Part shown: piece by piece, positions 7,015-52,290 of the stretch
Position numbering within the stretch: position 1 is the stretch's first letter
Layout of the letters: every line of letters begins with the position of its first letter
Program-made: the position numbers and the translations under genes
NCBI GenBank assembly: GCA_036504235.1
Contig: DASXVN010000005.1
Span: forward strand, 76,497-140,496
Reading direction: 5' to 3'
Origin: Armatimonadota bacterium
Lineage (GTDB): Bacteria; Armatimonadota; Zipacnadia; Zipacnadales; Zipacnadaceae
Length of the DNA: 64,000 nucleotides
The notes under the pieces: generated by a model
The model's database searches: none
Told to the model about the DNA's origin: nothing
Seen by the model: only the letters and a program-made list of their open reading frames with translations

Positions 7015-7024
7015 CGCGGCCGGG

Positions 7025-14718: not shown

Positions 14719-17700
14719 ATGAAACGTCTCATGCTGGTGGTGCTGCTGTCCCTGCTTGCCGTCTCCGCTTTCGCCGCTCCGACGACGCCGGCGGACCGCT
14801 CGCTGCTGGTCGTCGCCACCTACATCGGAGGGGCCGACTTTTTCGAGTTGCCGCTCATTCAGGTCCTGCTCAAACAGGGCTGGCACGTCCAGCGCGCCGA
14901 TATTACCGAGGTGAAGGAGCCGCTGCTCAAGCAGTTCCAGGTGGTGGTCATCACCGACGCCACCCGGCTGGACCCCGCGGCGGCCCAGCTTGACGCCATG
15001 GCGGGCACCCGGCCGATGATCGAAGGCCTCAGCCGGACGCTTTCCTCCTATGTGGAGGAGGGCGGCAACCTGTGGATTTTCGCCCGCTCCTCCAACCACA
15101 TGGGCAGCCCCGACGCGCTGAACGCCATGAACGTGATCCTCGAGCCCTGGGACGCGCAAGTCGCCCACGAGATGATCCGCGATCCGCAGCACGAGTCCAA
15201 TCAACTCCGCTACTGGCGGTACCGCTACTTCTACACCAACGCCATTACCAAAGACCCCCTGACCGAGGGCGTCACCGGTATCTGGTCGCCCAATCAGATC
15301 ATGGTGGGAATCACCTCGCCGCTGACGGTAGGCAAGGAGTGGACGCCGCTGATCCGCGGCATGAAGGGCTCCGGCTCGGACCAGGTGGTCAGCGACAACG
15401 GCTACCCCTTCGACAACGGCAAGCCGGGCCAGCAGAAGGAGGGCGTCATCGCCGCCGTTCGTACACTAGGGCAGGGCCGCATTCTGCTGACCGGATGGTG
15501 TCCCACTATCCCGGCCTTTGGCTTCAACCACGTCGTCTGGGACGACCTCATGCCCAGCGCGGGTCTTGCGGGCAAGAAGAGCGACTGGCTGACCTTCTTC
15601 ACTCGTTCCCTGGCGGTTCTCGCCGACGGGGCCAAGAACGTGGGCGGCTACGCGGGCGCCCCGGTGGTGCGCACGGAGCCTCCCCCCTCGATTATCCGCG
15701 ACTGGGACGCCGTCAAGCCGGGGGTGCCCAACCAGCCGCTATTCAAGGGCATCATCGGCGCCTCCACCAGCCTCTCTGACGGTACGGGCACGGTGGCCGA
15801 CTACGTGAAAGTGGCCCAGGAGATGGGCCTGAACTGGGTCGTCTTCACCGAGGACCTGCAGAAGATCACCGAGGATGGGTTCAAGCAACTGGTCGCCCAG
15901 TGCCAGGCCGCCTCCAGTGAGGACTTCGCCGCCATTCCGGGCCTCAAGTACCTGGAGGTCAACAACAACCACAAGATCATCGTCGGCCCCACCTGCTGGC
16001 CCAAGGCGAGCAAGTTGCACCTGCCCGACAAGACCATCTACGACCCGGTTTTCCTGTGGTTCGAGAGCGGCGTGCCCCTGCACCTGTACTACGACATGAA
16101 GGACAACGCCTACCCGGCCTACACTTATCGCGGGTACAACGCCATGGCGGTGGTGAGTTTCGACGAGGGCAAGCAGATCGAGGACGCGACCGCCGCTTAT
16201 CTGGACAACAATCATCACTGCGACCTGCTCACCCCGGTCGCGGTGAATCTGATGCGCTCGCCTGCGGCGCTGCGGACTTGCAGCTTTTACTACTACGCGC
16301 CCGCCAACAAGCTCGCCGACTGGGTGAAGGACGTGGGTCGCGAGTACCCCCGCTACGGCGGCTGGGGGCAGGGGTTCATCTCCTCAGGACCGCGCATCCG
16401 GCAGTGGGAGGCGGTCAACGGCCACCGCTTCACCGCCGGGCGCTGGTACGTGCCCGGCACCGAGCGCTGGCGCGTGGCGCTCCGCTGCGAGGCGGACGTG
16501 CCGCTCCAGACCGTGGAAATCCTGGAGAACCAGCAGGTCATCCGTACCTACCGGCCGACCGGTACTAGCTTTGAGGTCTACCTGGACGAGCTCCACGACC
16601 GCCAGAAGGTCCTGGTCGCGCGCGTGACCGACCAGAACGGCAACTGGGCCCTGACCGGCGGGATCACGCTCGACGACGGGCTGTACCGGCAGTTCCTGTG
16701 CAGCGACCGCCAGAACTACATGAGCGGCCAGCAGGACACCCGCACCGCCGACGACAAGTACGTAACCATCGGCGCTACCGGGATGATCGACAAGGACACC
16801 CGCGCGGGGTTCGGTAACGTGCAGACCTCCGACTCGCGCGCCCTCAATCCCTACGGCGTGGACGGGGGCTACGGCAACACCTTCTCGATGGGCAACCCCG
16901 TGCAGGTGCGCGGCAAGACCTGGGACTGCTACCCCTACGCGGTCTATCACCAGGGCTTCCGCTACTGCTCGCGCGACGCGATCATCTTCGACGAGCAGTA
17001 CACCCACCGCGCCGCCCCGGACTCGCCGGCCTGGCCCTCGCTGGAGAACCCCTGGCAGGCCCTGGACCCGCAGCGCTACTTCCAGGCGACGGTGACCGGC
17101 TACTACTTCCCCCACCAGTTCGGCGGCATTTCGCCCACGCTGGTGGATTACGACCTCAGCTTCGATCGCCAGCTTGATCTGAGCCGGGTCTGCAACCCGA
17201 ATATGGGCAAGTGGATCTTCTGGACGCACCGGCTGGGCTTCCACCATCCCGAGTTCCACTGGAAGACCGACCGGGTGCCGCTGAAGGGCTTTGTAGGCTG
17301 GGACACGCCGCCGACCAACGTCTACAGCGACAACTTCCCGGCGCTCAACCTGGCGACCCATGAGGGCGAGGTAGACACGGGCGTGGAGGATGTCTGCTCC
17401 CTCGTCAGCCCCGACGGCCAGACGACGACCCTGAAGGCCGGCCCCGACGCCGCGCATCCCGCGGTGTGGCAGGGGACGATGCAGCCCGGCCAGTTCCTCT
17501 CGCTCTATCCCAACCCCGCCGGCGCCGGCGGCTTCTTCCTGCTCAACGGAGACTTCCAGGCCCGCATCGAGCTGGGCTACGACTGGAAGCGCATCTATAC
17601 GGGCCTGTACGACCTGCGGTCCTTCGCGCCCGGCGACCAGTACAACGCCCGGCTGCTGCTCTTCCAGAGCAAGCTGCGCGACACCGATCCGGTCAAGTCC

Positions 17701-18210
17701 TGGACGGCCTTCCGCGATGCCTGGGGTGTCGCCGGTAAGGCCCCCGCGTACGGCCCCAAGCTCACCCGCGGGAAGGTCCTCGACACCCGCTACCTGCTGC
17801 GCCTGCAGGCGCAGGACGGGGCGGTCGTCGCCACCCTCGGCCAGGCCGATCTGGGCCAGCGGCTCCCGTTGGAGATCAACGGACTCAGCGACCACTGCAC
17901 CGCGGGCATCGTCAACAATACCCGCAAAGAATGGCTCCCCGTCGGCGTCGTGAACGGCCAGGCCTACGCCACCCTCGACACCCAGCCAGGCAGCAGCGAC
18001 GTCTACGTCGGCAACCTGGTCGCGTGCAGCCAGCCCGATTTATGGGTCACGGTGCTGCCGGTGGGGGAGGGCTTTGTGGTGGATGTCCACAATCCGACCG
18101 CGCAGGCGGTCAGCGCCACGGTGACGGCGCCGGAGGGCCTGTGGATGATCAAAGCCGGAACGAAAGCCGTAGACGTGCCCGCCGGAACCACGGTGCGGGT
18201 GGTCTGGTAA
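14719..18210 (+). CDS. Large secreted hypothetical protein (1163 aa) with an N-terminal class-I glutamine-amidotransferase-like module of the ThuA / GH42-trimerisation type. Possible glycan-active enzyme.
   Basis: Signal peptide 'MKRLMLVVLLSLLAVSAFAAP'. 'SLLVVATYIGGADFF...QVVVITDA' and 'GQGRILLTGWCP' resemble GATase1-like folds. RBS 'AAGGAG'. Confidence 0.45.
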   Translation: MKRLMLVVLLSLLAVSAFAAPTTPADRSLLVVATYIGGADFFELPLIQVLLKQGWHVQRADITEVKEPLLKQFQVVVITDATRLDPAAAQLDAMAGTRPMIEGLSRTLSSYVEEGGNLWIFARSSNHMGSPDALNAMNVILEPWDAQVAHEMIRDPQHESNQLRYWRYRYFYTNAITKDPLTEGVTGIWSPNQIMVGITSPLTVGKEWTPLIRGMKGSGSDQVVSDNGYPFDNGKPGQQKEGVIAAVRTLGQGRILLTGWCPTIPAFGFNHVVWDDLMPSAGLAGKKSDWLTFFTRSLAVLADGAKNVGGYAGAPVVRTEPPPSIIRDWDAVKPGVPNQPLFKGIIGASTSLSDGTGTVADYVKVAQEMGLNWVVFTEDLQKITEDGFKQLVAQCQAASSEDFAAIPGLKYLEVNNNHKIIVGPTCWPKASKLHLPDKTIYDPVFLWFESGVPLHLYYDMKDNAYPAYTYRGYNAMAVVSFDEGKQIEDATAAYLDNNHHCDLLTPVAVNLMRSPAALRTCSFYYYAPANKLADWVKDVGREYPRYGGWGQGFISSGPRIRQWEAVNGHRFTAGRWYVPGTERWRVALRCEADVPLQTVEILENQQVIRTYRPTGTSFEVYLDELHDRQKVLVARVTDQNGNWALTGGITLDDGLYRQFLCSDRQNYMSGQQDTRTADDKYVTIGATGMIDKDTRAGFGNVQTSDSRALNPYGVDGGYGNTFSMGNPVQVRGKTWDCYPYAVYHQGFRYCSRDAIIFDEQYTHRAAPDSPAWPSLENPWQALDPQRYFQATVTGYYFPHQFGGISPTLVDYDLSFDRQLDLSRVCNPNMGKWIFWTHRLGFHHPEFHWKTDRVPLKGFVGWDTPPTNVYSDNFPALNLATHEGEVDTGVEDVCSLVSPDGQTTTLKAGPDAAHPAVWQGTMQPGQFLSLYPNPAGAGGFFLLNGDFQARIELGYDWKRIYTGLYDLRSFAPGDQYNARLLLFQSKLRDTDPVKSWTAFRDAWGVAGKAPAYGPKLTRGKVLDTRYLLRLQAQDGAVVATLGQADLGQRLPLEINGLSDHCTAGIVNNTRKEWLPVGVVNGQAYATLDTQPGSSDVYVGNLVACSQPDLWVTVLPVGEGFVVDVHNPTAQAVSATVTAPEGLWMIKAGTKAVDVPAGTTVRVVW

Positions 18211-18268: not shown

Positions 18269-20452
18269 ATGCAATCCCTATCCAAGATAACTGAATTCCC
18301 CGTTTGGCTCGACCTGTCCCCCGAGGTGCGCGTGCAGCTTGTGGGCGAGGGCGATCGTTTGCTCGGTCTCGGCGCGGTCGAGATCGCCGGCGTGCCGGTG
18401 CGCGCCGGAGCCACGCCGATCCGGCCGGACTTCTCCACCCCCGACGCCCGGCACTATCAGGACTTTGTCCTGCTCGAAGTGGTCCAGGACGCCGACGGCG
18501 TCGTGCTGCGCACCGAGGCGCTGGGGCGACCCGAGGTCTACGGTGAGATGATGGACGAGTACTCGTACAACCTCGCCTTTCCGAGGCTGCGCGAGACCGT
18601 GCGGGACCAACTGGACTGGATTCTCCAGCCGGAAGAGCTAGTACTCGACGGGCAGCGCTACGTGGGCCTGTCGCTCGGCTTCCGGTTTGCGAGCGAGACG
18701 CAGGAGATCCACAAGCTGACGACGGTCGCCACCTGGGAAATCGGCGGGGCGGCGGCCGGCAACACCATTTACCATCAGGCATACACCTGCCCGCCGGTCT
18801 ACACCGCCACGGTCGAGAACCACTTCTCCACCACCTGCCTGAAGCGGCTGGACCTGTGGGATAGCTGGCTGGGGCACTCCTATCAGATGTTGCCGCGCTG
18901 GGGGGCTATCCAGCCCTTTGACTTCCAGGCCGCGGCGGAGGGGGTGCTGCTGGGCTACTGGAAAGACCCGCATGCGGTCAAGAGCCTGGTGCAGAAGAAC
19001 CCGGGCGAAGACGTGATCTTCGTGCTGGATGAGTACGACTTCCCGCTGGCCAAGACGGTTACCACGCCGGCCAAGCACATCCTCTTCAGCCCGGCGGAGG
19101 GGCGCGCGGCGCACGAAGTGGTGGATATGTGGACGCGGGCGATGGACCACACCGGCGAGATTATCCGCGGGTTCTTCGGCATCACGCCCTGCGAGCCGCT
19201 GCCCACGGGCGGGCCCTCGTACCACGGGCGCAACAGCGTGGCCCGGGAGGAACTGGCCGGCGGGCCGCAGGCCGACTGGCTGTGGCGCGTCAAGGACGGC
19301 AAGTTCTACTTCCTGCTCGAGGGCGACGAGATCGAGAGCCACGAGTTCCTGTACTGGACGGCGGACAAGATTCTGCCCCGGCTGCACGAGCAGGGGATTA
19401 AGCGCGTCACCTTTGAGCCGGTCCACGAGAGCGATTTCACCGAAGGCTGCATGGATTTCCATGCGCAGACCGGCTGGCATAGCGACCTGGTGGTCACCAG
19501 CATCTGCGGTTCGCGCCGGTACGTGCCCTCCGAGTTCTACGATGGCTGGCGCGGGTGGAACTACCTGGCGGACAAGGCGCGGCAGTTCGGCATGAGCGTC
19601 GGCCACTGGGTCGGCCTGCACCTGACCCCGCGGGCGCCGATCCTGCTGGAGCACCCGGAGTATATCCTGCAGCACGTCAACACCCTGGGCCATAGCGGCG
19701 GCTACAGCCACCAGTTCATCTGCTCGATCAACTGGTGCTCGGGGGCGCGGGAGTGGTTCCTCAACGATATGCGCCGGTGGCACGACGAGGGTGGCCTGGA
19801 GTGGCTGTTCTTCGACTCCTGGCCGAACCTGGGCTGCTCGCCGCTGAACTACGGCGGACGCATGGAGGCGATGCAGTGGGAGTTGGGTCACGTGCTCGCC
19901 GACCTGCAGGGGATTGGCTATAACTGGTTCAGCTTCGAGGGCACCAGCCCCTTTGGCGTCCATCAGTACGGCCTGTGGGACCCCATGACCGAGTACGAGA
20001 AGCATACCTCCGGCGGCGTGATGGGGCAGAACGACTTTGGCGGCTGGATCGGCCACGAGTACATGGGGTACAACCAGACTCTGGGGCCCAACGTCAACGC
20101 GCAGCGCGACCCGGCCGAGCTCCCGGCGATGCGCTTCCGCTACATGGCCAACCGCTCTCTGACCCTGTTTGGCATGAGGGAGGCGGGCCAGGACGCGGCG
20201 CTGGACGCGCTGGAGCAGACCTACCTCAAGCTGCAGCCGCTGATGCGCCAACGGTACCTACTCCCCGACGATCAGGGGGTGCGCTGGGTCTCCGGGGACG
20301 GCCCCGAGGCGCTGTTCGCCTTCAGGTCGTTTACCTATCCGGTTCCGGCGGGCGCCCCCGTCGTCGCCGTCAACGGCCGAGTGGAGACGCCGGTGGCGAC
20401 CAGCGGCGGGGTCCTGCAGACCACGCCCGGGACCGCCTATCGGATCGGTTAG
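18269..20452 (+). CDS. Hypothetical cytoplasmic protein (727 aa, no signal peptide), embedded among secreted glycan-binding proteins.
   Basis: RBS 'AGGAGG' plus ATG 18269; long clean ORF. I recognised no family motifs. Confidence 0.45.
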   Translation: MQSLSKITEFPVWLDLSPEVRVQLVGEGDRLLGLGAVEIAGVPVRAGATPIRPDFSTPDARHYQDFVLLEVVQDADGVVLRTEALGRPEVYGEMMDEYSYNLAFPRLRETVRDQLDWILQPEELVLDGQRYVGLSLGFRFASETQEIHKLTTVATWEIGGAAAGNTIYHQAYTCPPVYTATVENHFSTTCLKRLDLWDSWLGHSYQMLPRWGAIQPFDFQAAAEGVLLGYWKDPHAVKSLVQKNPGEDVIFVLDEYDFPLAKTVTTPAKHILFSPAEGRAAHEVVDMWTRAMDHTGEIIRGFFGITPCEPLPTGGPSYHGRNSVAREELAGGPQADWLWRVKDGKFYFLLEGDEIESHEFLYWTADKILPRLHEQGIKRVTFEPVHESDFTEGCMDFHAQTGWHSDLVVTSICGSRRYVPSEFYDGWRGWNYLADKARQFGMSVGHWVGLHLTPRAPILLEHPEYILQHVNTLGHSGGYSHQFICSINWCSGAREWFLNDMRRWHDEGGLEWLFFDSWPNLGCSPLNYGGRMEAMQWELGHVLADLQGIGYNWFSFEGTSPFGVHQYGLWDPMTEYEKHTSGGVMGQNDFGGWIGHEYMGYNQTLGPNVNAQRDPAELPAMRFRYMANRSLTLFGMREAGQDAALDALEQTYLKLQPLMRQRYLLPDDQGVRWVSGDGPEALFAFRSFTYPVPAGAPVVAVNGRVETPVATSGGVLQTTPGTAYRIG

Positions 20453-35974: not shown

Positions 35975-36019
35975 CCCCCTCTCCTGCGGCGTTCGTCGGC
36001 GAACGCCCCGGAGAGGGGG
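35975..36019 (+). promoter_or_regulatory. Strong intercistronic hairpin between the E2 and E1-alpha genes.
   Basis: Two-tier stem 'CCCCCTCTCC...GGCGTTCG tcgg CGAACGCC...GGAGAGGGGG', followed by a G/C-run mini-hairpin and the RBS 'AAGGAG'. No U-tract. Confidence 0.4.
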
Positions 36020-36052
36020 CGGGGGGGGTGAGGCCTCCCCCGAAGGAGTAAC

Positions 36053-37030: not shown

Positions 37031-38047
37031 GTGGCTCATATCACGATAGCGGAAGCCTTGCGCGATGGTTTGCGCGAGGAGATGGCGCGCGATGACCGCG
37101 TGTTCTGCATTGGCGAGGATATCGGCATCCCCGGCGGCTGGGGCGGCGCTTTCACGGTGACGCTCGGGCTGGAGAAGGACTTCCGGGAGCGGATCATTGA
37201 CACGCCGATCTCCGAGGCCGGCTTCTTCGGCGTGGCGCTGGGCGCGGCGGTGATGGGCCTGCGCCCGGTGGCCGACGTGCAGTACAGCGACTTTCTCTTC
37301 TGCGCGATGGACCAGGTCGTCAACCAGATCGCGACCCTGCGCTACATGTCGGGCGGGAAGGTCACCGTGCCCCTGGTGATGCGCGCCCCGGTCGGCGCCA
37401 CCGGTCGCGGGGCCCAGCACGCCCGCAATCCGGAGGCCATCTTCTACGGCATCCCCGGCCTGAAAATCGTCTGCCCCGCCACCGCCTACGACGCCAAGGG
37501 CCTGCTCAAGGCGGCTATCCGCGAGGACAATCCGGTGCTGATCTTCGAGCATAAGCTGCTCTACGGCTCCAAGGGCGCACGGGCGGAGTCGGGCAACATC
37601 GACGCCTCCAGCGAGGTCCCGGCGGAGGACTATATCGTACCGATTGGCTCAGGGATCGTGCGGCGGGAGGGCAGCGACGTGACGATCATCGGTACGCTCC
37701 TGATGATGCACCGCGCGCTGCTGGCGGCCGAGCGCCTGGCGGCCGAGGGGATCAGCGCCGAGGTCATCGACCCGCGCAGCCTGGTGCCCTTCGACTGGCC
37801 GCTGGTGGAGGCCTCCGCGCAAAAGACCGGCCGCGCGGTGATTGTCGAGGAGGGCCCGCGCACCGGTGGCATTGGCGGCGAGCTGGCCGCGACGCTCTCC
37901 GAGCGCCTGGTCGACTACCTGCTGGCCCCGGTCGCGCGGGTGGCCTCGCCGGATATCCCGGTGCCCTTCGCTCCGCCGATGGAGGATTTCTACCGCCCGA
38001 CCGTAGAGCGAATCATGGAGGCAGCGCGCGTCGTCGTGAACGGGTAG
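37031..38047 (+). CDS. 2-oxoacid dehydrogenase E1 component, beta subunit.
   Basis: GTG start 5 nt after 'AGGAGGA'. Motifs 'DDRVFCIGEDIG..GGWGGAF', 'RIIDTPISEAGFFGVALGAAVMGLRPV' and 'RAPVGATGRGAQH'. Confidence 0.75.
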   Translation: MAHITIAEALRDGLREEMARDDRVFCIGEDIGIPGGWGGAFTVTLGLEKDFRERIIDTPISEAGFFGVALGAAVMGLRPVADVQYSDFLFCAMDQVVNQIATLRYMSGGKVTVPLVMRAPVGATGRGAQHARNPEAIFYGIPGLKIVCPATAYDAKGLLKAAIREDNPVLIFEHKLLYGSKGARAESGNIDASSEVPAEDYIVPIGSGIVRREGSDVTIIGTLLMMHRALLAAERLAAEGISAEVIDPRSLVPFDWPLVEASAQKTGRAVIVEEGPRTGGIGGELAATLSERLVDYLLAPVARVASPDIPVPFAPPMEDFYRPTVERIMEAARVVVNG

Positions 38048-38071
38048 GCGCCGTCTCAAGGAGTGCTCACC

Positions 38072-39025
38072 ATGGCCGAGGTTGTTTGCCTGGGGATTCT
38101 GGTCGCTGATGTCTGGGCTCGTCCGGTGGACCGCTGGCCGGAACACGGGCGGCTGGGCGTGGTGGGCCAGACTGGACTGTCCCTGGGCGGCTGCGCGGCC
38201 AACACCGGCACCGATTTGCAGCGTCTGGGCGTCTCCGTGGCGGTGCAGGGCTGCGTGGGGGAGGACGGTTTCGGCGATTTTGTCACCGATTCCCTGCGAC
38301 AGGACGGGATTGACGTCAGCGGCATTTACCGCACCCGCGCGGCCGGCACCTCGACCACGATGATCATGATCGACAGCGCCGGGGAGCGCACCTACCTGCA
38401 CTGCTTCGGCGCGAACGGTCACCTCGACCCGGCGCGGTTGGACATGGCCGCGATCAAGTCCGCGAAGCTGCTGCACCTGGCGGGCGTACTGCTCATGCCC
38501 GGCTTTGACGGTGAGCCGCAGGCCCAGGTCCTGGCCGCAGCGCAGGCAGCGGGCGTGACCACCTGCGTGGACACCGCCTGGGACGACACCGGCCGTTGGA
38601 TGCAGACCGTCGCCCCGTTGCTGCCGCATGTTGACCTGTTCCTGCCCAGCCTCCCGGAGGCCCAGAAACTAACCGGTCGGGACTGCCCGGAGGAGATGGC
38701 CCGGGTCCTGCTCGATGCTGGCGCGGGCCTGGTGGGCATAAAGCTGGGCCCTGACGGCAGCTACGTGCGCACCGCCGACGCGGAGTTGCGGATGCCGGCC
38801 TATCGGGTGCACGTGGTGGATGGCAGCGGCGCGGGGGACGCGTTCGTGGCGGGGTTCCTCTATGGCCACCTGCACAACTGGGACCTGGAGCGCACCCTGC
38901 GTTTCGCCAACGCCGTCGGCGCCCTGGCCACTACCGCCGCCGGGACCACCACCGCCGTGCGCGACTACGATCAGGTGATTGAGCTACTGGAGACCCACGA
39001 ACCAGGCCAGTGGGCGGGGCGCTAG
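38072..39025 (+). CDS. PfkB-family carbohydrate kinase (ribokinase-like).
   Basis: N-terminal 'VVCLGILVAD' and the C-terminal anion-hole/ATP motif 'DGSGAGDAFVAGFLYG'. RBS 'AAGGAG' 8 nt before ATG 38072. Confidence 0.65.
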   Translation: MAEVVCLGILVADVWARPVDRWPEHGRLGVVGQTGLSLGGCAANTGTDLQRLGVSVAVQGCVGEDGFGDFVTDSLRQDGIDVSGIYRTRAAGTSTTMIMIDSAGERTYLHCFGANGHLDPARLDMAAIKSAKLLHLAGVLLMPGFDGEPQAQVLAAAQAAGVTTCVDTAWDDTGRWMQTVAPLLPHVDLFLPSLPEAQKLTGRDCPEEMARVLLDAGAGLVGIKLGPDGSYVRTADAELRMPAYRVHVVDGSGAGDAFVAGFLYGHLHNWDLERTLRFANAVGALATTAAGTTTAVRDYDQVIELLETHEPGQWAGR

Positions 39026-39032
39026 CAGAAAG

Positions 39033-39175
39033 CCGTTGCCGTACGTAGGGGTGGATCTTTCGCGGAGCCGTATCCCGCGGAACATCCACCCGCGCCTGCC
39101 GCTGATCCACGGCTTCGTGGTTGCCGCGGGTGGACGTCGCGGCGCAGACGCCACGAGGTCCACCCCTACAGGGGA
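39033..39175. repeat. Intergenic repeat element (REP/MITE-like), full copy, with 13-bp imperfect terminal inverted repeats and internal palindromes.
   Basis: The 60-bp core 'GCCGTTGCCGTacGTAGGGGTGGATCTTTCGCGGagCCGTATCCcGCGGAACATCCACCCGCG' at 39033-39093 is about 93% identical to 44744-44804. The ends 'GTAGGGGTGGATC' (39045-39057) and 'GGTCCACCCCTAC' (39157-39169) are inverted. It begins 8 nt after the PfkB stop, between convergent genes. Confidence 0.5.
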
Positions 39176-39179
39176 TTGC

Positions 39180-40049
39180 TCAGGCCTGCCCTGCCGCCCC
39201 TAGCACCTCACACTTCTCCGCCACCAAGTTGCTGACCGCCTCCAGCGCCGGCCGCATCACGTCCGCCTCCAGGCCGGTACCCAGCAGTTCGTGCGGGTCC
39301 TCGGCGCGCCAGTTTTCGGCCAGCGAGCGCTCCAGTTGCGCCAGGAAGACCAGCCGCTGCGCGGTGCCGTAGTTGACCTGGGGGACGCCCCGTCCCGCCG
39401 CTTCGCGCAATTGCTCGTCCTCCGCGCCGCTGCCCCCGTGCAAGACCAGTGGTGCCGGCACGACCTCGGCCAACCGCGCGATCAGGTCCAGATCGAGTTG
39501 GTACTTGCCCGTGGTCAGGTGGCGGTTGCCGGCGGTGATGCCCAGCGCGTGGACGCCGGTGCGGCGGGCGAAATCCGCGGCCACCTCCGGCTCCGTGTTG
39601 TCGTGGTCGCCGCCCAGCAGGGAGCCGACCTCGGACTCCACCTCCACGCCAACCGCCGCGGCCTGACGCACAAGGTCCGCCGTCTTGCTGACATGCGCCT
39701 CCGGATCGTCGGTGGGGTTACTGTACATGACCACGTTGAAGCCCAGCGGCAGCGCCGCCACGGCCCAATCCCAGTAGGGCGTCTCGTTGAACAGGTACGC
39801 CACCGGCACGGTCGCGGCCTCCGCGGCGAGACGGCCGGCCTGCGCGTAGGCGGGGAAGAAGCGCTGATCCATGCCCAGGGCGGGCGGCAGGTAGAGGCCG
39901 CTCTGGCCAATCATAATCGGCGCCCGCGCTCGCTCCGCGCCGCGCAGGATGGCCAGCAGGCTGGCCTCATCCCAGGGCTCGAAATAGGCGACCGCATAGC
40001 CGCCTTGGCGTGCGGCGGCCATGATCTGACTGAAAGGTTCCATCGGCAT
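39180..40049 (-). CDS. Class II (metal-dependent) ketose-bisphosphate aldolase family protein (fructose/tagatose-bisphosphate aldolase-like).
   Basis: 'GYAVAYFEPWDEASLLAIL', 'PVAYLFNETPYWD' and 'LVLHGGSGAEDEQLREA'. The start is ambiguous: GTG 40061, ATG 40049 or ATG 40043. Confidence 0.6.
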   Translation of the reverse strand: MPMEPFSQIMAAARQGGYAVAYFEPWDEASLLAILRGAERARAPIMIGQSGLYLPPALGMDQRFFPAYAQAGRLAAEAATVPVAYLFNETPYWDWAVAALPLGFNVVMYSNPTDDPEAHVSKTADLVRQAAAVGVEVESEVGSLLGGDHDNTEPEVAADFARRTGVHALGITAGNRHLTTGKYQLDLDLIARLAEVVPAPLVLHGGSGAEDEQLREAAGRGVPQVNYGTAQRLVFLAQLERSLAENWRAEDPHELLGTGLEADVMRPALEAVSNLVAEKCEVLGAAGQA

Positions 40050-40250
40050 CGGCCTAACCACCCCTGTGCTCGTCTCGGGCGAGTCCTGCGGCAGCGCGGG
40101 TAAGTTCCCCGCCAGACCGCGATTTCCTCGCCCGCGGCGCCCCGAGCCTCCGCCCCGGTGCGTCGTCGCTTGACACGAGGAGGCCCGGGAGTACTATCGG
40201 CGAAATCCCCAATCGACTCCGGAAACCCAGAGAGGCGAGTGAGTTCGTCC

Positions 40251-40595
40251 ATGAAGACACGGAAACGATCACCGGCGATCCTCGCGGCGCTCCTGATGCT
40301 CGCCGCCCTCGCAGCGAGCGCTCACGCGGCCGCCCCGCCGCTGGTGCCGGGGCGTTACGTGACCAAGTTCATCCTCAAGGTGGCGGACAACACCCAGCCC
40401 GAGGGGGGTCTTTTCCTACGGCCTCTAGGGAGCGACCAGGAAATCTGGCCGCAGGGGAAGGGTCGCGTGGCAGCCTTCCTCGGCACGCCGATGGGGGAGG
40501 CCGGCCCCGGCCGGCGGGGCTTCTGGGAGAGTTCATCCTGGCCGCAGACGATGGCGGCGCTGTTGCGCTGGCTGGCCGGCGGACCGGAGGGCTAG
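40251..40595 (+). CDS. Small secreted hypothetical protein (114 aa).
   Basis: ATG 40251 gives signal peptide 'MKTRKRSPAILAALLMLAALAASAHAAAPP'. The ORF track starts upstream at 40158. Confidence 0.35.
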   Translation: MKTRKRSPAILAALLMLAALAASAHAAAPPLVPGRYVTKFILKVADNTQPEGGLFLRPLGSDQEIWPQGKGRVAAFLGTPMGEAGPGRRGFWESSSWPQTMAALLRWLAGGPEG

Positions 40596-40770
40596 TCGCG
40601 AACCGGCCCGCCGGGAACGCCCCTGGTGGCGCTGGCGCCACTGGCCGGCGGCCCTGGCCGAGTTGGTGCGCTTGACCGCCTCTTCCGGGTAGGGGCGCGT
40701 GGGGCGGAGCGCAGCGCCTTCACCCCCGAGAGAGGAATCGGGGCGCCGCTCGGAGAACCGGCCTCGATGG

Positions 40771-40782
40771 GTAAACGTTTAC
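40771..40782. promoter_or_regulatory. Perfect 12-bp palindrome GTAAACGTTTAC, 62 nt upstream of the beta-helix gene. It matches a LacI/GalR-type operator core.
   Basis: The sequence equals its own reverse complement. With flanks, 'gGTAAACGTTTACa' differs by one base from the LacI-family consensus TGTAAACGTTTACA. Confidence 0.4.
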
Positions 40783-40843
40783 ACGGCAGGTGGCTGCGAG
40801 GCCGCGGTAGCAGCGAACCTGACTGACTGAGAGGCGAAACAAG

Positions 40844-42304
40844 ATGCGCTTCCTGACTGTACTGAGCCTGGCCGTCCTCCTGGTGACCTGGGGCCTGGCC
40901 GCCCACGCGGCGGAACCGGGCCCGGCCGTGTCGCTCAACGCCGCGGACTATCCGGACTTGCAGGCAGCCGTCAACGCCTTGCCCAACTCCGGCGGCACGG
41001 TGCTGCTCCCCCCGGGCACGATCAAGCTCGACAAGACTCTGAACCTGTCCTTCGCCCTGCACCAGAACCCACAGTTCTCGGTCACTCTCCAGGGCGCGGG
41101 CACGCTAGCCACGGTCCTCCTGCTCGATACCAAGGGGCAGCCGGGGCTGGATTTCACCGGCAACTCCTACTGGAAGGTCTCCAATCTGCACCTCATGAAC
41201 CGCAGCGGTAATGTCGGCGTGCTCCTGGCCCGGACCCCCGCCAACGGCCGGGGCTGTTCCGGGGAGTTCAACAACGTGCTCTTCAGCGGCTGCTTCCCCG
41301 TCGCCGCGGTCTACCTGACCGGCGCGGAGGTCTGCCGCTTCTACCACTGCCAGTTCAGCAACCAACTGAAGAAGTGGTACAACCAGGACGTCGCCGGCGT
41401 GACCGAGGGCGAGGCCTGCGTCATGATCTCCCCGAACAACGTCCGGGGCCTGCAGAGCCCCTACTGCACAGAGGGCACCGGCGGCGGCTCCAACACCGAG
41501 TACTACTTCGACGGCTGCACCTTCAACAACGAGGCGCCGGAGTCCCGCGGGCTCAAGATCTTCGGCCAGGCCTCCGACATCCGCGTCACCAACAGCTATC
41601 TGCACTCCGATGGCTTCACCGCGATCTACCTGGACGCCACCAAGGGCAATCTCTCCGGCTTGTCCCTGCGCGATCTCCGGATTGAGGGCGAGCACGGGCA
41701 GCACGCTCTCTACGCGATCGGCCACACCAATCAGGTCACCATCGAGGGCGGCTCCTGGAACGCCACCAAGGAAGTAATCCTGCAGGAGGCTGCCCCGGTC
41801 GCCTTCGTGGATGCCGGCGGCCCCTGCGTCTCGAAGGTCGGCGCGGCCAACAAGTGGCGGATCTCGCAGCTTTCCATGTCGATCTGGGACGGCTGGGGCT
41901 ACTCTAAGGAGTACCGCCAGATGGCGCAGGAGATGCGCGGCGGTCCGCTGCCCACCGCTTGGGCGGACAACGTGCCGCACGTCTACATGCGCTTCCATAC
42001 CCTGCTGAACAGCGTCATCGAACCCTGCGAGCCGGTCACCTTGCGCTGGCGCGAAGCCCTAGCCAGACCGGCGAACGCGGGCGACCAGGGGACAGTCAAC
42101 GGGCTGAGCGCCGAACAGGCGCAGGGCCTGTTCGAAGCAAGTTTCCAGCCTGGCGAGGCCAATCAGCGCCTGCGTGACCGGATGCGCCAAGTTGCCCTGG
42201 GCGCGGGCAGTGCCGGCAACCGGATCACGGTGACCAGCCGCGGACTGCTGGAAATAGACGCCGCCACCGCCCGGCACAATAGCCTCACTATCTTGCCCAA
42301 GTAG
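40844..42304 (+). CDS. Secreted right-handed parallel beta-helix protein (pectate-lyase / GH28-like fold).
   Basis: Signal peptide 'MRFLTVLSLAVLLVTWGLAAHAAEP'. 'ADYPDLQAAVNALPNSGGTVLLPPGTIKL' is the hallmark N-terminus of pectin-lyase-fold proteins. Repeated 'N..G....L' coils follow. Confidence 0.55.
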   Translation: MRFLTVLSLAVLLVTWGLAAHAAEPGPAVSLNAADYPDLQAAVNALPNSGGTVLLPPGTIKLDKTLNLSFALHQNPQFSVTLQGAGTLATVLLLDTKGQPGLDFTGNSYWKVSNLHLMNRSGNVGVLLARTPANGRGCSGEFNNVLFSGCFPVAAVYLTGAEVCRFYHCQFSNQLKKWYNQDVAGVTEGEACVMISPNNVRGLQSPYCTEGTGGGSNTEYYFDGCTFNNEAPESRGLKIFGQASDIRVTNSYLHSDGFTAIYLDATKGNLSGLSLRDLRIEGEHGQHALYAIGHTNQVTIEGGSWNATKEVILQEAAPVAFVDAGGPCVSKVGAANKWRISQLSMSIWDGWGYSKEYRQMAQEMRGGPLPTAWADNVPHVYMRFHTLLNSVIEPCEPVTLRWREALARPANAGDQGTVNGLSAEQAQGLFEASFQPGEANQRLRDRMRQVALGAGSAGNRITVTSRGLLEIDAATARHNSLTILPK

Positions 42305-42312
42305 AAAGCAGG

Positions 42313-42376
42313 CGCGAGAGGAACGGGGGGCAGGTGCGCCTGACCGGCGCGGAGAACCCTGCCCCCGTTCTCGCGT
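42313..42376 (+). terminator. Long imperfect hairpin downstream of the beta-helix gene. Probable terminator.
   Basis: 'GCGAGAGGAACGGGGGGCAGG' (42313-42333) pairs with 'CCTGCCCCCGTTCTCGCG' (42358-42376). It is followed by 'TTGCGG', a weak U-tract. Confidence 0.35.
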
Positions 42377-42466
42377 TGCGGTACAGCCCTTACCCTAGTA
42401 CGTGCCCAACAATCGGAGAGCCAGGCCCCCCGCGCCGCCCTCCGCCTACGACAGGAGAATCCCACT

Positions 42467-44731
42467 ATGCCCCAATATTTCACGCGAGATTACTTCACTT
42501 ACGACGGCAAGCCCAGCTTCATTTTCGGCGGTGATTTCAACTACACGCGCTGCCGGGCTGACGACTGGCGCGACCGCATGCTCAAGATGCGCGCCGCCGG
42601 GCTCAACACCCTCAATCTGTACGCCACCTGGGCCTTCCATGAGTTGGCGGAGGGCGAGTGGGACTTCTCCGGCGACCGCGATCTGGCCCGCTACCTGGAC
42701 ACGGCCCAGGAGCTAGGCCTGTGGGTAGTCTTCCGCCTGGGGCCCTTCATCCACGGCGAGTGGCGCAACGGCGGCCTGCCCCAGTGGCTGCTCGACAAGC
42801 TGGGCAAGCGCGCCCGCTCCAACGATCCCGAGTACCTGCGCCTGGCCAAGCTCTGGTACGAGAAGGAGCTGGAAATCGCCGTGCCGCGCCTGATCAGCCG
42901 GGGCGGGCCGATCATTATGGTGCAGGTGGAGAATGAACTGGGCTCGGCGGGCTCCAAGGGTGACGACATCCCCCGCGGCTCCACCGACCCCGAGGAGAAC
43001 GCCAAGCATGTGCTCTACTTCCACGGCCTCCTGCAGGAGCACGGCGTGGACGTGCCGGTGCTGGACATCAACCACTTCCCGGGCAAGGAAGACATGCCCA
43101 ATCTCATCAGCCCGGGGGGCGCCTACATCGTCAACTGCTTCGGCAGCGAGGGCGACTTCTGGCCGCTGAGCCTGGACGGCTGGGACCGGCACGACCGGCC
43201 GCTCATGACCATCGAGACGATGGGCGGCATGTTCCAGCGCTTCTACGACTGGCCGGCGTACCAGAACACCAACGGCTATCAGGGGCCGATCGTCAAACCT
43301 GAGTACCTGGAGGCGGTCACCCACCAGCACCTGGCGGAGGGCAGCAACGCCATCAACTATTACGTATTCGTGGACGGTCAGCATCCCGATGAGGGCAACG
43401 AGCGGATGCTGCCCTACCGGGACATGAACTACCAGGCGCCGATCACCGCCACCGGCACCTTGCGCGAGTCCTACCGCTCCGTCAAGCGCCTGGGCTGGTT
43501 CCTGCGGGCCTTCGAGCAGGAGATGCTGACCTCCCAGCCTAACCCGACCTGGATGCACGCGGTCTCCTATGGCCAGGCGCACCCCGGCACCGAGGAGACC
43601 GGCGATCTGTTCGCCATGTATCACGCCGAGGGCAAGGAGATTCCCGACGCGCTCAAGCATGTATCGGTGCTCAAGGCGAGCGGCCGGGCCACCAAGGGCC
43701 TGAACCTGAGCGAGTCCAACTTCGCCTTCCTGTTCAACATCAGCACCCGGGGCACCCAGTGGAAGTGCGACGTGCGCCTGACCACCTCGCCGCGCGGCAT
43801 CCCCTGCGAGGTCTCGGCCGAATACCCCCGCCGGACGCAGCTTTCCCTGCCGCCGCAGCGCACCAAGTGCCTGCCTTTCTTTGTCAAGCTGACCGAGGGG
43901 ACCTTCCTGGAGTACTCCACGGCGGAGTTGCTGGACCGCCGGCCCTTCGGCGCCGGGGTGCAGGTGATCCTCCACGCGGACGCCGACGAGTTGGTGGAGA
44001 CGCGCCTGGTCCTGCCCGAGCGCCGGGAGGCGCGCCACGACGGCGCCAGCCTGGCCCTGTGGGAGAGCCCGAACACCCTGCTGCTGGCCGGCGTCCCCGG
44101 CGAGAACCTGTCCGTGGTCACGGTGGGGGAGGCCGAGCCGGTGCGCATCGTGCTGATGGAGCGGCGTCTGGCCGGGCAGGTCTGGGACCTCGCAGCCCCC
44201 GGCGGCCCGGTAGTGGCGGCGAGCAACCTGGCGATCCTGGAGAGCACCGTCAGCGGTAGCCAAACCGTGGCCACCGTGCAGCTCACGGAGCCGGATGTGT
44301 TCCTGCACCTGATCTGCGATCGCGAGCCGGTAGTGGGCCTGCCGCAAGTGGAACTCACCGGCGGCTGGGACCCGGCGACCGGCGTCTACAGCGCCTCCGG
44401 CCGGGCCGCGGTGCCCCCGGTGGAGATTCCCTTCACCCAGCGACGCGAGGGCGAGTTGTGGGTCTGGGAGGCCGAGGTCCGTCCGGAGCAACTGGCGGGC
44501 CTGGCGGAGCTGATCCTGCACGCCGAGTACGACGGCGACTGCGCCCGGGCCTACCTCGACGAGACGCTCATCAGCGACCACTATATGGGCCGCTGGCAGT
44601 ACTGGGAGGCGGGCCTGAAGAACTGGCTCACCGCCCCGGCCACCCTGCGCCTGGAGTTCGAGCGCACCCGCCAGGTGGACCTGCGCGTCATGCCGGTAGT
44701 GGAGACCGAGATGCGCGTGGAGTGGAAGTAG
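42467..44731 (+). CDS. Glycoside hydrolase family 35 beta-galactosidase.
   Basis: 'KPSFIFGGDFNYTRCRADDWRDRMLKMRAAGLNTLNLYATWAFHE' and 'GPFIHGEWRNGGLPQWL' match the GH35 signature region ('GPYICAEWDFGG.P.WL'). 'VQVENELGS' contains the catalytic-acid Glu. RBS 'AGGAG'. Confidence 0.7.
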   Translation: MPQYFTRDYFTYDGKPSFIFGGDFNYTRCRADDWRDRMLKMRAAGLNTLNLYATWAFHELAEGEWDFSGDRDLARYLDTAQELGLWVVFRLGPFIHGEWRNGGLPQWLLDKLGKRARSNDPEYLRLAKLWYEKELEIAVPRLISRGGPIIMVQVENELGSAGSKGDDIPRGSTDPEENAKHVLYFHGLLQEHGVDVPVLDINHFPGKEDMPNLISPGGAYIVNCFGSEGDFWPLSLDGWDRHDRPLMTIETMGGMFQRFYDWPAYQNTNGYQGPIVKPEYLEAVTHQHLAEGSNAINYYVFVDGQHPDEGNERMLPYRDMNYQAPITATGTLRESYRSVKRLGWFLRAFEQEMLTSQPNPTWMHAVSYGQAHPGTEETGDLFAMYHAEGKEIPDALKHVSVLKASGRATKGLNLSESNFAFLFNISTRGTQWKCDVRLTTSPRGIPCEVSAEYPRRTQLSLPPQRTKCLPFFVKLTEGTFLEYSTAELLDRRPFGAGVQVILHADADELVETRLVLPERREARHDGASLALWESPNTLLLAGVPGENLSVVTVGEAEPVRIVLMERRLAGQVWDLAAPGGPVVAASNLAILESTVSGSQTVATVQLTEPDVFLHLICDREPVVGLPQVELTGGWDPATGVYSASGRAAVPPVEIPFTQRREGELWVWEAEVRPEQLAGLAELILHAEYDGDCARAYLDETLISDHYMGRWQYWEAGLKNWLTAPATLRLEFERTRQVDLRVMPVVETEMRVEWK

Positions 44732-44743
44732 GGGAGCCGTAGT

Positions 44744-44804
44744 GCCGTTGCCGTTTGTAGGGGTGGATCTTTCGCGGGCCGTATCCGCGGAACATCCACC
44801 CGCG
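44744..44804. repeat. Second, truncated copy of the intergenic repeat seen at 39033.
   Basis: 'GCCGTTGCCGTttGTAGGGGTGGATCTTTCGCGGgCCGTATCCGCGGAACATCCACCCGCG' lies 13 nt after the GH35 stop. It lacks the right-hand terminal inverted repeat. Confidence 0.5.
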
Positions 44805-44860
44805 TTCGCCGCAAACGAACCTAGTCCCGCGCACGCACCAATCACAGGGAGACGACCATC

Positions 44861-46753
44861 ATGCCCGCCAAGCAGCGCAGCCTCATCTGGAGCCTCAGCG
44901 ACGACCCGGCGTACGCCGGGTACAACGACAACTTCCGCGCGCAGGCCGAGTTGGCCGCGGCGGCGGGCGCTACTCATATCAACATCACCCGCATCCCGCC
45001 CAGCCGCTGGCAGATGGTGGACCCGCGCGATCCGCACCCGGAGTGGACCTCCTGGCCGATTTGGTCCATGGCCCTCAGCGGCATGTTCAAGCTGGCCGTG
45101 CCGGAGGCGCTGGCGGAGTGGCTGCCCCGTGCGGAGGCCGAGCGCAATCTGGACCTGCTGGCCGAGCGCTGTGACATTCTGCGCTCCCTGGGCCTGCGGG
45201 CCGCCTACGCGGGCAATGACCCCATGTGGCTGCCGGAGGGCGTCTTCCGGGCGCATCCCGAGTGGCGCGGGGCGCAGGGCGAGTTGCTCTGCATTGCCCG
45301 GCTCTCGTACTTCAGCCCCTGCGTGGATCACCCCGAGGTCCTGGAGATGTACCGCTGGGCCATGGAGCAGCTCTGCCGCCGCGTGCCGGAGCTGGACTAC
45401 TGGGCCTCCTTCACCAACGACTCCGCCGGCGGGCTGTGTTGGTCGGGATCGTATCCCGGCGACAACGGTCCGGCCTGGTGTCACGAGCGCAGCCACACCG
45501 AGCGGGTAGTTGGCTTTCTCTCCGCCCTGCAGCAGGGGGCGCGCGATGCGGGGTGCGAGGTCGAGGCCGACCTGCGCGTATGCAGCGTCCCGCCCGCCTT
45601 CGACTACCACCAGCTCCGGCCGGGCCAGCTCTACAACGGTCGGAACCAGGAGGGGCGGCCGGTCGGCTCGGGTGTGGGCAGCAACTCGTACTGGGGCAAC
45701 CACATGTACCCGGTGCTGGGGCTGCCCAGGATGTTCTCCTTTGCCGAGGAGCTGGAGGGCGCCCTCGCGGCCGACACGGTTACGGTCTCGATCGGGTTTG
45801 GCCCGCTCGTGGAGGACGCCCTGATCCCGCTGTATCGCGAGCTGGTCGCCGCCCCTACCCGCGGCCCGGCGGCGCGCACCGCGGCGCTGCGGCGCGTGGC
45901 GGCCACCCTGGTCGCCGAGGAGCACGCCGAGCAGTTGGTGGAGGTCTGGACGCTGATTGAGCGCTCGGTCGAGTGCGCCCGGCACGTCCGCGGCTACGGC
46001 TACGCCAGTATCGCTCTGGTCGGCGCGGGCATGATGCGCTGGCTGACCATGCCGCTGGTGCCGGATCCCTCCCGCCTTACACCGGAGGAGAAGGCCTTCT
46101 ATCAGCGCCACCGGGTCGTCACCAACGAGATCGAGGCGGACAGCTACCACGCGATCCTGGGGCGGCCGGGAGTGATCGGCTCCTCCGCGGTGTGGATGGC
46201 TCAAAACTCGTTCAACGAGGCCATCGCGTACGCGCGCCGCGCCGCCTCGGGGATGCGCGGTTTGGTCGCTTCCGCCGGGGACGAGGGCGCCGCCGCGCTG
46301 CTGCGGGCCTGGGGCGACCGGGCGCAGACCCTGGCCTGCGTCTACACCACCTGCCGCAATTTCATCCAGTACGAGGAGGCGCTGGCTCAGCGCTCGCCCG
46401 AGGAGGTCGAGGTGATCTGGCGCGACCAGACGGGGACCTATGGCCTCAGCCGCGCCGGGGTTGAACTGCGGGCCATCGCTCGCTCGGAGTTGGATAACGC
46501 CTACGAACTGGCGGCGCTGCTGGAGCAGGCGACGGCCCCGATCTTGCCGCTGGCCGCGACCCCGGAAGGGGAGGACTCCTTCGTCTTCAGCCCCGACCTG
46601 ACCGCGCAACTCCGCCGCAAGGCCGAGCTGATGCTGGATCACTGGGCGGAGTACAACGAGGACTACCCCGCGCAGCCGCAAGTGCAGGCGCGCCAGGTCA
46701 CCGAGCAGGGCGACGTCCGCCCCGGCCTGGCGGACAACTGGAGCGACTTCTAG
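44861..46753 (+). CDS. Hypothetical cytoplasmic protein (630 aa).
   Basis: ATG 44861 follows 'AGGGAG'. Clean long ORF with no signal peptide. I recognised no family. Confidence 0.45.
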   Translation: MPAKQRSLIWSLSDDPAYAGYNDNFRAQAELAAAAGATHINITRIPPSRWQMVDPRDPHPEWTSWPIWSMALSGMFKLAVPEALAEWLPRAEAERNLDLLAERCDILRSLGLRAAYAGNDPMWLPEGVFRAHPEWRGAQGELLCIARLSYFSPCVDHPEVLEMYRWAMEQLCRRVPELDYWASFTNDSAGGLCWSGSYPGDNGPAWCHERSHTERVVGFLSALQQGARDAGCEVEADLRVCSVPPAFDYHQLRPGQLYNGRNQEGRPVGSGVGSNSYWGNHMYPVLGLPRMFSFAEELEGALAADTVTVSIGFGPLVEDALIPLYRELVAAPTRGPAARTAALRRVAATLVAEEHAEQLVEVWTLIERSVECARHVRGYGYASIALVGAGMMRWLTMPLVPDPSRLTPEEKAFYQRHRVVTNEIEADSYHAILGRPGVIGSSAVWMAQNSFNEAIAYARRAASGMRGLVASAGDEGAAALLRAWGDRAQTLACVYTTCRNFIQYEEALAQRSPEEVEVIWRDQTGTYGLSRAGVELRAIARSELDNAYELAALLEQATAPILPLAATPEGEDSFVFSPDLTAQLRRKAELMLDHWAEYNEDYPAQPQVQARQVTEQGDVRPGLADNWSDF

Positions 46754-46876
46754 CGGCGAGACCGTCTTTCTCTCCGGGAGGAGGAATCCTCGGCGGGGGC
46801 GTTGAAATAACTTAGTCTTCGTCGCCTGCCTGTAGCCGGGGCGGCGACCATCTCGCCGCCAGGAGTAACGCCGTCT

Positions 46877-47416
46877 ATGACCAGACAACAGGTTTTTCGC
46901 CGTCAGATCTACATCGTGCTCGCCATCATCGTGCTCATTGGCGGGGTAGTCGCGGTTCGCCAGTACCTCAATACCTTCGGCTATGTCGTCCAGTTGGGTC
47001 CGGTGTCGCGCGCTCTCTTGGTCAATGCCAACGGCAAGCTCGAGGAGTGGACCGATGAGCCGACGCTGAACGCGATCCGGGCGGCGCTTCCCATGCACCG
47101 CGCCGGGGCGGGATTCATGCTGCCCGGAGACGAGCACGAGAGCTACGGCCTCGTCCTGATCGACGCGCAGGGCCAGCCGCACATGCTGGTTCTGCCGGTG
47201 GGGTTCAGCGTCATGGTCGGGCTCAAGCCCAAAGAAGGCAGCGAGAACGCCTGGGCCATGCCCGAGTTGCTGGGTCTGCTGGGTAACCTCGAGATAGAGA
47301 AAGTCAAGGCGAAGCAGTTGGGCGATCCCGCCAGTGCGGCCCAGTTGGAGTACTGGTACAACACCTTTGGCGACGGCAAGCGCCTGCCGAAGCCTCCCAC
47401 GGAGGGTGCAAAGTAG
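46877..47416 (+). CDS. Small hypothetical protein with an N-terminal TM anchor (179 aa). Its stop directly abuts the FGGY kinase start.
   Basis: RBS 'AGGAG'. TM helix 'IYIVLAIIVLIGGVVAV'. Stop TAG 47414-47416 is immediately followed by ATG 47417. Confidence 0.4.
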   Translation: MTRQQVFRRQIYIVLAIIVLIGGVVAVRQYLNTFGYVVQLGPVSRALLVNANGKLEEWTDEPTLNAIRAALPMHRAGAGFMLPGDEHESYGLVLIDAQGQPHMLVLPVGFSVMVGLKPKEGSENAWAMPELLGLLGNLEIEKVKAKQLGDPASAAQLEYWYNTFGDGKRLPKPPTEGAK

Positions 47417-52030: not shown

Positions 52031-52290
52031 GCGCGATCGTCTCCTCTGGCTGCGACTAGTAGTGACCAGCAAGAGCAGACGAGGCCGGGGAGCGGAGGGT
52101 TTGGTGGAGGGTGAGAGGGGTCGTCTCCACGTAGGGGCGCGTTATGCGGAGCGAAGCGGAGCAACACACGCCCGCGCCAGGGCGGCAGGGGGAGGCAGGA
52201 GGCCAGTGTAACCTCATCCGCCTTCGCTGAAGCTACGGCGGACAGGCCCCCCGGCCCCCTCTCCCGCGGCAGGGAGGGCGCGAGGGCCGG

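Follow-up and report, generated by a model that had tools for sequence, protein, structure and literature searches.

Palindromic repeats behind gene stops in an uncultured Armatimonadota genome: a probable family of GTAG-type REP dimers

What are the two short palindromic repeats that stand immediately behind gene stops in a 64,000-nucleotide stretch of an Armatimonadota genome (assembly GCA_036504235.1, contig DASXVN010000005.1, positions 76,497 to 140,496; hereafter the window, with a G+C content of 68.6 %)? A preliminary description of this stretch had suggested that they could be a dispersed element and likened them both to repetitive extragenic palindromes (REPs) and to miniature inverted-repeat transposable elements (MITEs). 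We find that they very likely belong to a GTAG-type REP dimer family of this uncultured genome, a family whose anatomy, repetition, placement and turnover can be read directly from the sequences compared here. Measured against the numbered GTAG families, with which it was compared by description only, it is a new family of a known kind.

The similarity of the two copies proved to be real. Using blastn, positions 39032-39094 align with 44744-44804 at 93.65 % identity over 63 columns (E=5e-18), and no other pair of intergenic regions in the window gave a significant match. Two exact blocks of 21 and 20 nt are present in both copies, GTAGGGGTGGATCTTTCGCGG at 39045 and 44757 and CCGCGGAACATCCACCCGCG at 39075 and 44785, and neither block found a match in any of 100 dinucleotide-preserving shuffles, even with three mismatches allowed. 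With the first two copies lying just 5.7 kb apart, one might think of a segmental duplication or a chance similarity restricted to this locus. This is barely credible given that the flanking genes and the flanks themselves are unrelated, that the similarity is limited to the 63-nt element, that the shuffles gave no match and that further copies are found about 34 kb away (see below).

Both copies fold as the imperfect palindrome that had been described, with an interrupted stem of 17 positions (8 bp, a C·C mismatch, 8 bp). DNA fold energies are -14.6 to -18.2 kcal/mol, with z = -2.8 to -3.4. We refer to the first copy as unit A and to the second as unit C. The motif GTAGGGGTGGA is present a third time on the minus strand, starting at 39169, where it opens another unit, B. 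All three window units of this family (family 1) fold singly into one stem-loop form. A unit opens with an unpaired 5′-GTAG and continues with an outer stem of 8 bp (GGGTGGAN), which a C·C mismatch separates from an inner stem of likewise 8 bp; after a loop of 4-9 nt come the return arms and a 3′ GCG. The whole measures about 50 nt (46-50), with 16 pairs and one mismatch. The inner stem is TTTCGCGG/CCGCGGAA in units A and C and TCGTGGCG/CGCCGCGA in unit B. Between A and B the outer stem is kept, with its last pair changed from T-A to C-G, and the inner stems differ, each being self-complementary.

Units A and B are arranged in inverted orientation, tail to tail in the sequence, with their GTAG ends outward and a 30-nt spacer between them. 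What had been described as a long first copy with inverted ends is therefore two complete hairpin units in a head-to-head heterodimer. Its length from GTAG to CTAC is 125 bp (39045-39169) and not the approximately 143 bp claimed earlier. The 13-bp inverted ends do exist (GTAGGGGTGGATC at 39045-39057 and GGTCCACCCCTAC at 39157-39169), but both are the 5′ parts of independent hairpin units, and the supposed terminal repeat on the right belongs to the complete unit that runs on the minus strand from 39169 to 39125.

This arrangement bears directly on the MITE-like reading, which in its strict form assumes an element of 125-143 bp with terminal inverted repeats (TIRs), moved by a DDE transposase, and regards unit C as truncated. 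The presence of 13-nt inverted ends is in agreement with it, and so is the repetition of the whole dimer with sharp ends reported below. We still consider it highly improbable. Each supposed end is the start of a complete hairpin that folds independently and has an inner stem of its own, a singleton exists, the dimer arms are just 73 % complementary to each other, and the minimum-energy fold is two separate hairpins. No target-site duplication was seen in the two right flanks, the side on which the flanks of the dimers are comparable. Moreover, units of the second family introduced below carry the same GTAGGGG foot on different bodies, which fits a hairpin-recognising Y1 enzyme and not the TIR-binding DDE enzymes.

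The source contig was recovered as Ga0376481_000112 of JGI 3300035523 (219,479 bp, an Armatimonadota metagenome-assembled genome, MAG). It extended the readable sequence by 8,495 nt on the left and 9,000 nt on the right, so that window and flanks together cover 81.5 kb, about 2 % of the genome. A second A/B dimer is located at window-equivalent positions 72875-72999, about 34 kb from the first. The two dimers are 87 % identical across the aligned region, the similarity stops exactly at CTAC, and the unit-B half of the first dimer (alignment positions 90-140) is invariant when compared with the copy at L033 78-138. Since the whole 125-bp dimer has been copied with a sharp end at CTAC, the dimer itself is the repeated entity, and singletons such as unit C coexist with dimers.

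We also identified a sister family, family 2, defined by GTAGGGGCGCGT...ACACGCCCG (also GTAGGGGCGCGT...ACACACGCCCG), with six units at -6740, -6631, 52131, 69212, 69318 and 71382. Its stem has 1x1 mismatches at regular spacing. Head-to-head dimers are formed by the units at -6740/-6631 and 69212/69318, and the unit at 71382 is single. Outside the window, the dimers of family 2 correspond to L032 1743-1876 and L033 3671-3801, and the single unit to L033 1570-1631. According to the preliminary description, the existence of just two copies would have pointed to a local duplication; the contig, however, holds the A/B dimer twice and, in addition, at least six units of a sister family. In all, the 81.5 kb contain 11 strong units, distributed over 7 loci.

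Sequences upstream of the tag show some regularity as well. The flanks of units A and C align without differences at 39032-39042 and 44744-44754, and in the RNA fold the flank of unit A (39032-39044) pairs with the spacer 3′ of the unit. In many units of the window, L032 and L033, the approximately 8 nt 5′ of GTAG are pyrimidine-rich (gTTTCCsC-GTAGGGG), and units A and C have GCCGTTGCCGT in this place. This pyrimidine-rich flank could belong to the element, reflect a preference for certain targets, or be the place where the presumed transposase cleaves.

From the 11 units we built a covariance model, R1, which gives all of them 44-72 bits and detects no further strong match in the window. All 11 units have GTAG followed by GGG without variation, the GTAG lying outside the stem. 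Across the units 91.5 % of the stem cells are paired, compared with 30-56 % in register-slid controls, and compensatory double changes were observed in 5 of the 13 pairs. Covariation scored 0.394 in the units and 0.173 ± 0.028 in shuffles, of which none among 500 reached the observed value. The G·U pairs of the 11 units are confined to the GTAG strand, which fits an action of the element as single-stranded RNA or DNA.

Regarding the placement, all strong units are intergenic. For 10 of the 11, at least one neighbouring gene ends at the intergenic region that holds the unit, and in seven the unit starts 0-40 nt past the stop of a same-strand gene. The A/B dimer occupies the space between the convergent genes for a PfkB-family kinase (stop 39025) and an aldolase (stop 39180); its GTAG tags are 19 nt (A) and 10 nt (B) from these stops, each sense to its own gene. 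Unit C begins 25 nt past the stop of the GH35 gene (44731), and the next open reading frame (ORF), at 44861, follows 56 nt after the unit. Both copies thus follow plus-strand stops, as had been noticed, although the similarity begins 6 nt and 12 nt past them instead of the claimed 8-13 nt. In the unit at -6740, the GTAG supplies the TAG stop of a WbsX-like gene. The heptamer GTAGGGG occurs 14 times in the window, five times in the intergenic part, which makes up 13.9 % of the window. The REP-type reading that the preliminary description had offered is borne out by these features taken together: the 5′ GTAG is unpaired, the stem-loop is rich in G+C, the sites are extragenic and just after stops, and inverted dimers occur.

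The position immediately past stops would also suit host-encoded 3′-end hairpins, that is, U-tract-less terminators or mRNA stabilisers that owe their resemblance to shared constraints or gene conversion and involve no REP-associated tyrosine transposase (RAYT). Such hairpins would agree with the G·U pairs on the transcribed strand, with the unrelated hairpins that also follow window genes (35975-36030 and 42321-42370), and with the fact that no RAYT was found in the window or flanks. It is difficult to reconcile them with two 125-bp dimers, 34 kb apart, that share 87 % identity, do not vary at all over stretches of about 50 nt and have sharp GTAG/CTAC ends. The invariant unpaired GTAG has no role in a terminator but is the recognition foot of a RAYT, no T-run follows the units, one unit is antisense to its neighbours and another lies in a divergent region. 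As the units are also absent at the orthologous sites of relatives, we think an origin as host hairpins unlikely.

These relatives show how the sites change. GH35 orthologues with 74-77 % identity were found on three contigs (L030, L046 and L044), and unit C is absent at the orthologous site in all three. In L046 the site is a 48-nt spacer and in L044 it holds an unrelated hairpin. In L030, whose GH35 is 77 % identical, the site (6960-7090) contains a palindrome with arms of about 35 nt, GAGGAGGGGCCGCGATGAGCG...CGCTCATCCGGCCCCTCCTC, without a GTAG tag. One gene further on, L046 (JGI 3300041809, GH35 75 % identical) carries a different GTAG homodimer at 3816-3911, with GTAGGGCGCGGACTCGTGCCGCGCC present twice. 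It is a classical short REP, composed of GTAG + GGCGCGG / ACTCGTG / CCGCGCC twice, with GTAG outward and 46 nt between the two. In the window, no repeat stands at the orthologous position (46754-46876). The occupancy of orthologous sites therefore varies, as would be expected if units are inserted and lost, and less so of a conserved regulatory site.

Assembly breaks give a further view of the repetition. Four Logan short-read contigs of SRR11794808, which are 100 % identical to the window sequence, have 6 of their 8 ends inside units A, B, C or 52131 or 7 nt before unit 69212, and the units occupy less than 1 % of the sequence. Contig ends at the units fit the behaviour of multi-copy k-mers in de Bruijn assembly. 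The coordinates of these contigs, the units and the adjacent genes are summarized in Table 1.

Table 1. Repeat units, their flanks, short-read contigs and neighbouring genes, in window coordinates; R1 is the covariance model built from the 11 strong units.
Feature	Coordinates	Strand	Details
5′ flank of unit A	39032..39044	+	GCCGTTGCCGT + 2 variable nt; common to units A and C
Family-1 unit A	39045..39094	+	GTAG, GGGTGGAT, C, TTTCGCGG, 9-nt loop, CCGCGGAA, C, ATCCACCC, GCG; R1 58.4 bits, E=4e-12
A/B dimer spacer	39095..39124	.	30 nt; partly kept in the second dimer copy (GGCTTC..GGTTGCC)
Family-1 unit B	39125..39169	-	GTAG, GGGTGGAC, C, TCGTGGCG, TCTG loop, CGCCGCGA, C, GTCCACCC, GCG; R1 68.3 bits, E=1e-14
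5′ flank of unit C	44744..44756	+	common to units A and C
Family-1 unit C	44757..44804	+	A-type singleton; R1 58.4 bits
Family-2 unit	52131..52176	+	GTAGGGGCGCGTTATGCGGAGCGAAGCGGAGCAACACACGCCCGCG; R1 66.3 bits, E=4e-14
Possible decayed family-2 unit	40689..40734	+	GTAGGGGCGCGTGGGGCGGAGCGCAGCGCC...; weak R1 match, 15.4 bits, E=0.29
Short-read contig L026	27378-39061		
Short-read contig L012	39140-44773		
Short-read contig L027	44760-52174		
Short-read contig L034	57161-69205		
PfkB-family kinase gene	38063..39025	+	Pfam PF00294, E=3.5e-61; convergent with the aldolase gene
Class-II fructose-bisphosphate aldolase gene	39180..40061	-	Pfam PF01116, E=1.3e-43
GH35 beta-galactosidase gene	42467..44731	+	upstream of unit C; Pfam PF01301, E=1.7e-55; NCBI 'MAG TPA: beta-galactosidase [Armatimonadota bacterium]'

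Some other features of the neighbourhood were recorded. Several ORFs without a Pfam match (179-1,163 aa) are situated beside glycoside-hydrolase genes, at 40844-42304, 44861-46753, 46877-47416, 14719-18210 and 18269-20452, and the 630-aa one among them keeps its synteny with GH35 in two relatives (L030 and L046). No expanded paralogue family was found in the region. The first of the two unrelated hairpins mentioned above, at 35975-36030, is long (CCCCCTCTCC..CGTTCG-tcgg-CGAACG..GGAGAGGGGG) and lies just past a stop codon. Near 52250 (short match 52247-52270), 18 nt of it are found again; it could represent a further small repeat or a hairpin resembling a terminator. The second, at 42321-42370, is a 13-bp G+C-rich inverted repeat, GAACGGGGGGCAGG...CCTGCCCCCGTTC, located 17 nt past the stop of a 486-aa ORF, and no other copy of it was seen.

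Other classes of element were also considered. An intrinsic terminator was rejected, the units being G+C-rich hairpins without a T-run, none of which was reported by the terminator scan of 38000-46000. An attC-like site was rejected as well, the unit ends having no GTTRRRY/RYYYAAC core sites. Searching the whole window against Rfam resulted in 0 matches at the gathering score and in chance-level ones only (E 0.6-0.7, 17 bits against a cut-off of 45 bits), and there is no tRNA. Concatenated six-frame translations of both dimers had no matches in the protein database at E<=1.

What is established for GTAG REPs, in particular for E. coli TnpA-REP/RayT and Pseudomonas REPIN-RAYT (REPIN, REP doublet forming a hairpin), leads us to infer both a transposase and a role at the RNA level for the present family. 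Most likely, a single-copy RAYT of the HUH/Y1 type, encoded elsewhere in the genome, would make and move the copies in the form of single-stranded DNA hairpins. This enzyme would recognise the GTAG foot together with the base of the stem. Insertions would persist mainly just 3′ of genes, where a transcribed hairpin may shield the upstream mRNA from 3′ exonucleases or aid a U-tract-less termination.

Several observations weigh against assigning the repeats to GTAG-type REPs. Such REPs typically have more than 100 dispersed copies per genome, and every copy seen here sits on one contig. The contig breaks could come in part from poor read coverage over hairpins and not from repetition. A RAYT/Y1 transposase was found neither in the window nor in the flanks, using phmmer with E. 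coli RayT and a scan of six-frame ORFs for the HUH...YxxNP motif, and PF01797 was absent from our Pfam scans and from the precomputed Pfam lists of the same regions. This absence from 81.5 kb is uninformative because the gene is single-copy and about 2 % of the genome was covered. Searching the protein database with E. coli RayT, the best 120 matches were all enterobacterial. The tails of the window units (GCGCCTGCC, GCGGCAACC and GCGTTCGCC) contain no T-run, and the terminator scan of 38000-46000 flags none of the units. The unit at 52131 lies between two minus-strand genes and is antisense to both, and the one at 71382 lies between divergent genes. Finally, with about 50 nt and a 17-position stem, the present units are longer than those of the described GTAG families, for which units of 20-40 bp and stems of 6-13 bp are typical (PMC3733652).

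Relatives of the units were looked for in 185,579 species genomes and in JGI metagenome contigs, neither of which includes the window's own genome, using the pattern GTAGGGGTGGAN{18,40}TCCACCCGCG. Matches were mostly chance ones inside genes, and real hairpin relatives were restricted to L001, L006, L008, L014, L015, L016 and L024. Units in the frame GTAGGGGTGGAC...GTCCACCCGCG, with self-complementary interiors and often arranged as head-to-head dimers, are present in Candidatus Zipacnadum vermilionense (Armatimonadota) and in a Sphaerobacteraceae MAG; the same frame also occurs on the metagenome contigs L014, L015, L016 and L024. On L014 (ENA FWPV01003250.1), positions 2443-2558 form a head-to-head heterodimer of a unit with the GGGTGGAC stem and one with the GGGCGGAT stem, separated by a 4-nt spacer, which shows the same modular family in a metagenome organism. 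Viral contigs gave 9 raw matches to the 18-base pattern of family 1 and 0 for family 2.

A more far-reaching proposal is that the units represent a distinct REP lineage of Armatimonadota and Chloroflexota-like genomes, either with an undescribed RAYT subclass or, without any RAYT, as the main U-tract-less 3′-end hairpin. Such a lineage would be recognised by its GTAGGGG foot, by a long bipartite stem in which the C·C mismatch is fixed, and by inner stem-loops that are exchangeable. We regard this proposal as doubtful. As a GTAG-REP dimer system of the ordinary kind, the family leaves the current understanding of REPs unchanged and adds one phylum to their range. REPs have been studied mostly in Proteobacteria, and our literature search found no report linking REPIN or RAYT with Armatimonadota. 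For practical purposes, R1 is a compact covariance model for annotating such elements in MAGs, the units mark likely 3′ ends of transcription units, and the repeats probably explain why the short-read assembly of this organism is fragmented every 5-12 kb.

The closest known counterpart is the GTAG REP superfamily with its families GTAG-1 to GTAG-24, characterised by a G+C-rich stem-loop of which one end carries an unpaired GTAG. Its subfamilies show G·T pairs and stem changes that compensate each other, and its dimers are arranged head to head, often as heterodimers, with spacers of 20-100 bp. The elements lie between convergent or unidirectional ORFs, less than 20 bp from stops, with the GTAG sometimes providing the TAG stop (PMC3733652). 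Our units agree with the GTAG REPs described by Di Nocera, De Gregorio and Rocco (2013) in the tag, the stem-loop, the compensatory changes, the head-to-head dimers and the placement after stops. They depart from the families of PMC3733652 in that their stem is of 8+8 bp and always contains the C·C mismatch, and Armatimonadota, the host phylum, is outside the phyla given there. The numbered families (e.g. GTAG-23 of Thermomicrobium) were compared through their descriptions and not by consensus sequence.

As to the size of the units, 'long' and 'long with bulge' REPs are on record for several TnpA-REP subclasses. Compared with the bacterial interspersed mosaic elements (BIMEs) of E. coli, composed of REP Y/Z pairs and served by TnpA-REP/RayT, the present family has no sequence similarity, and neither window nor flanks yielded a RayT homologue. 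It shares with them two REP types alternating in inverted orientation, the 5′ GTAG foot, the imperfect stem and the position at gene 3′ ends. The REPIN doublets of Pseudomonas, reportedly described by Bertels and Rainey in 2011, differ from the present dimers, whose two halves are not copies of each other and whose doublet is not predicted to form one long hairpin. As in those REPINs, it is the inverted doublet and not the single REP that is the repeated unit, and singletons are found beside doublets.

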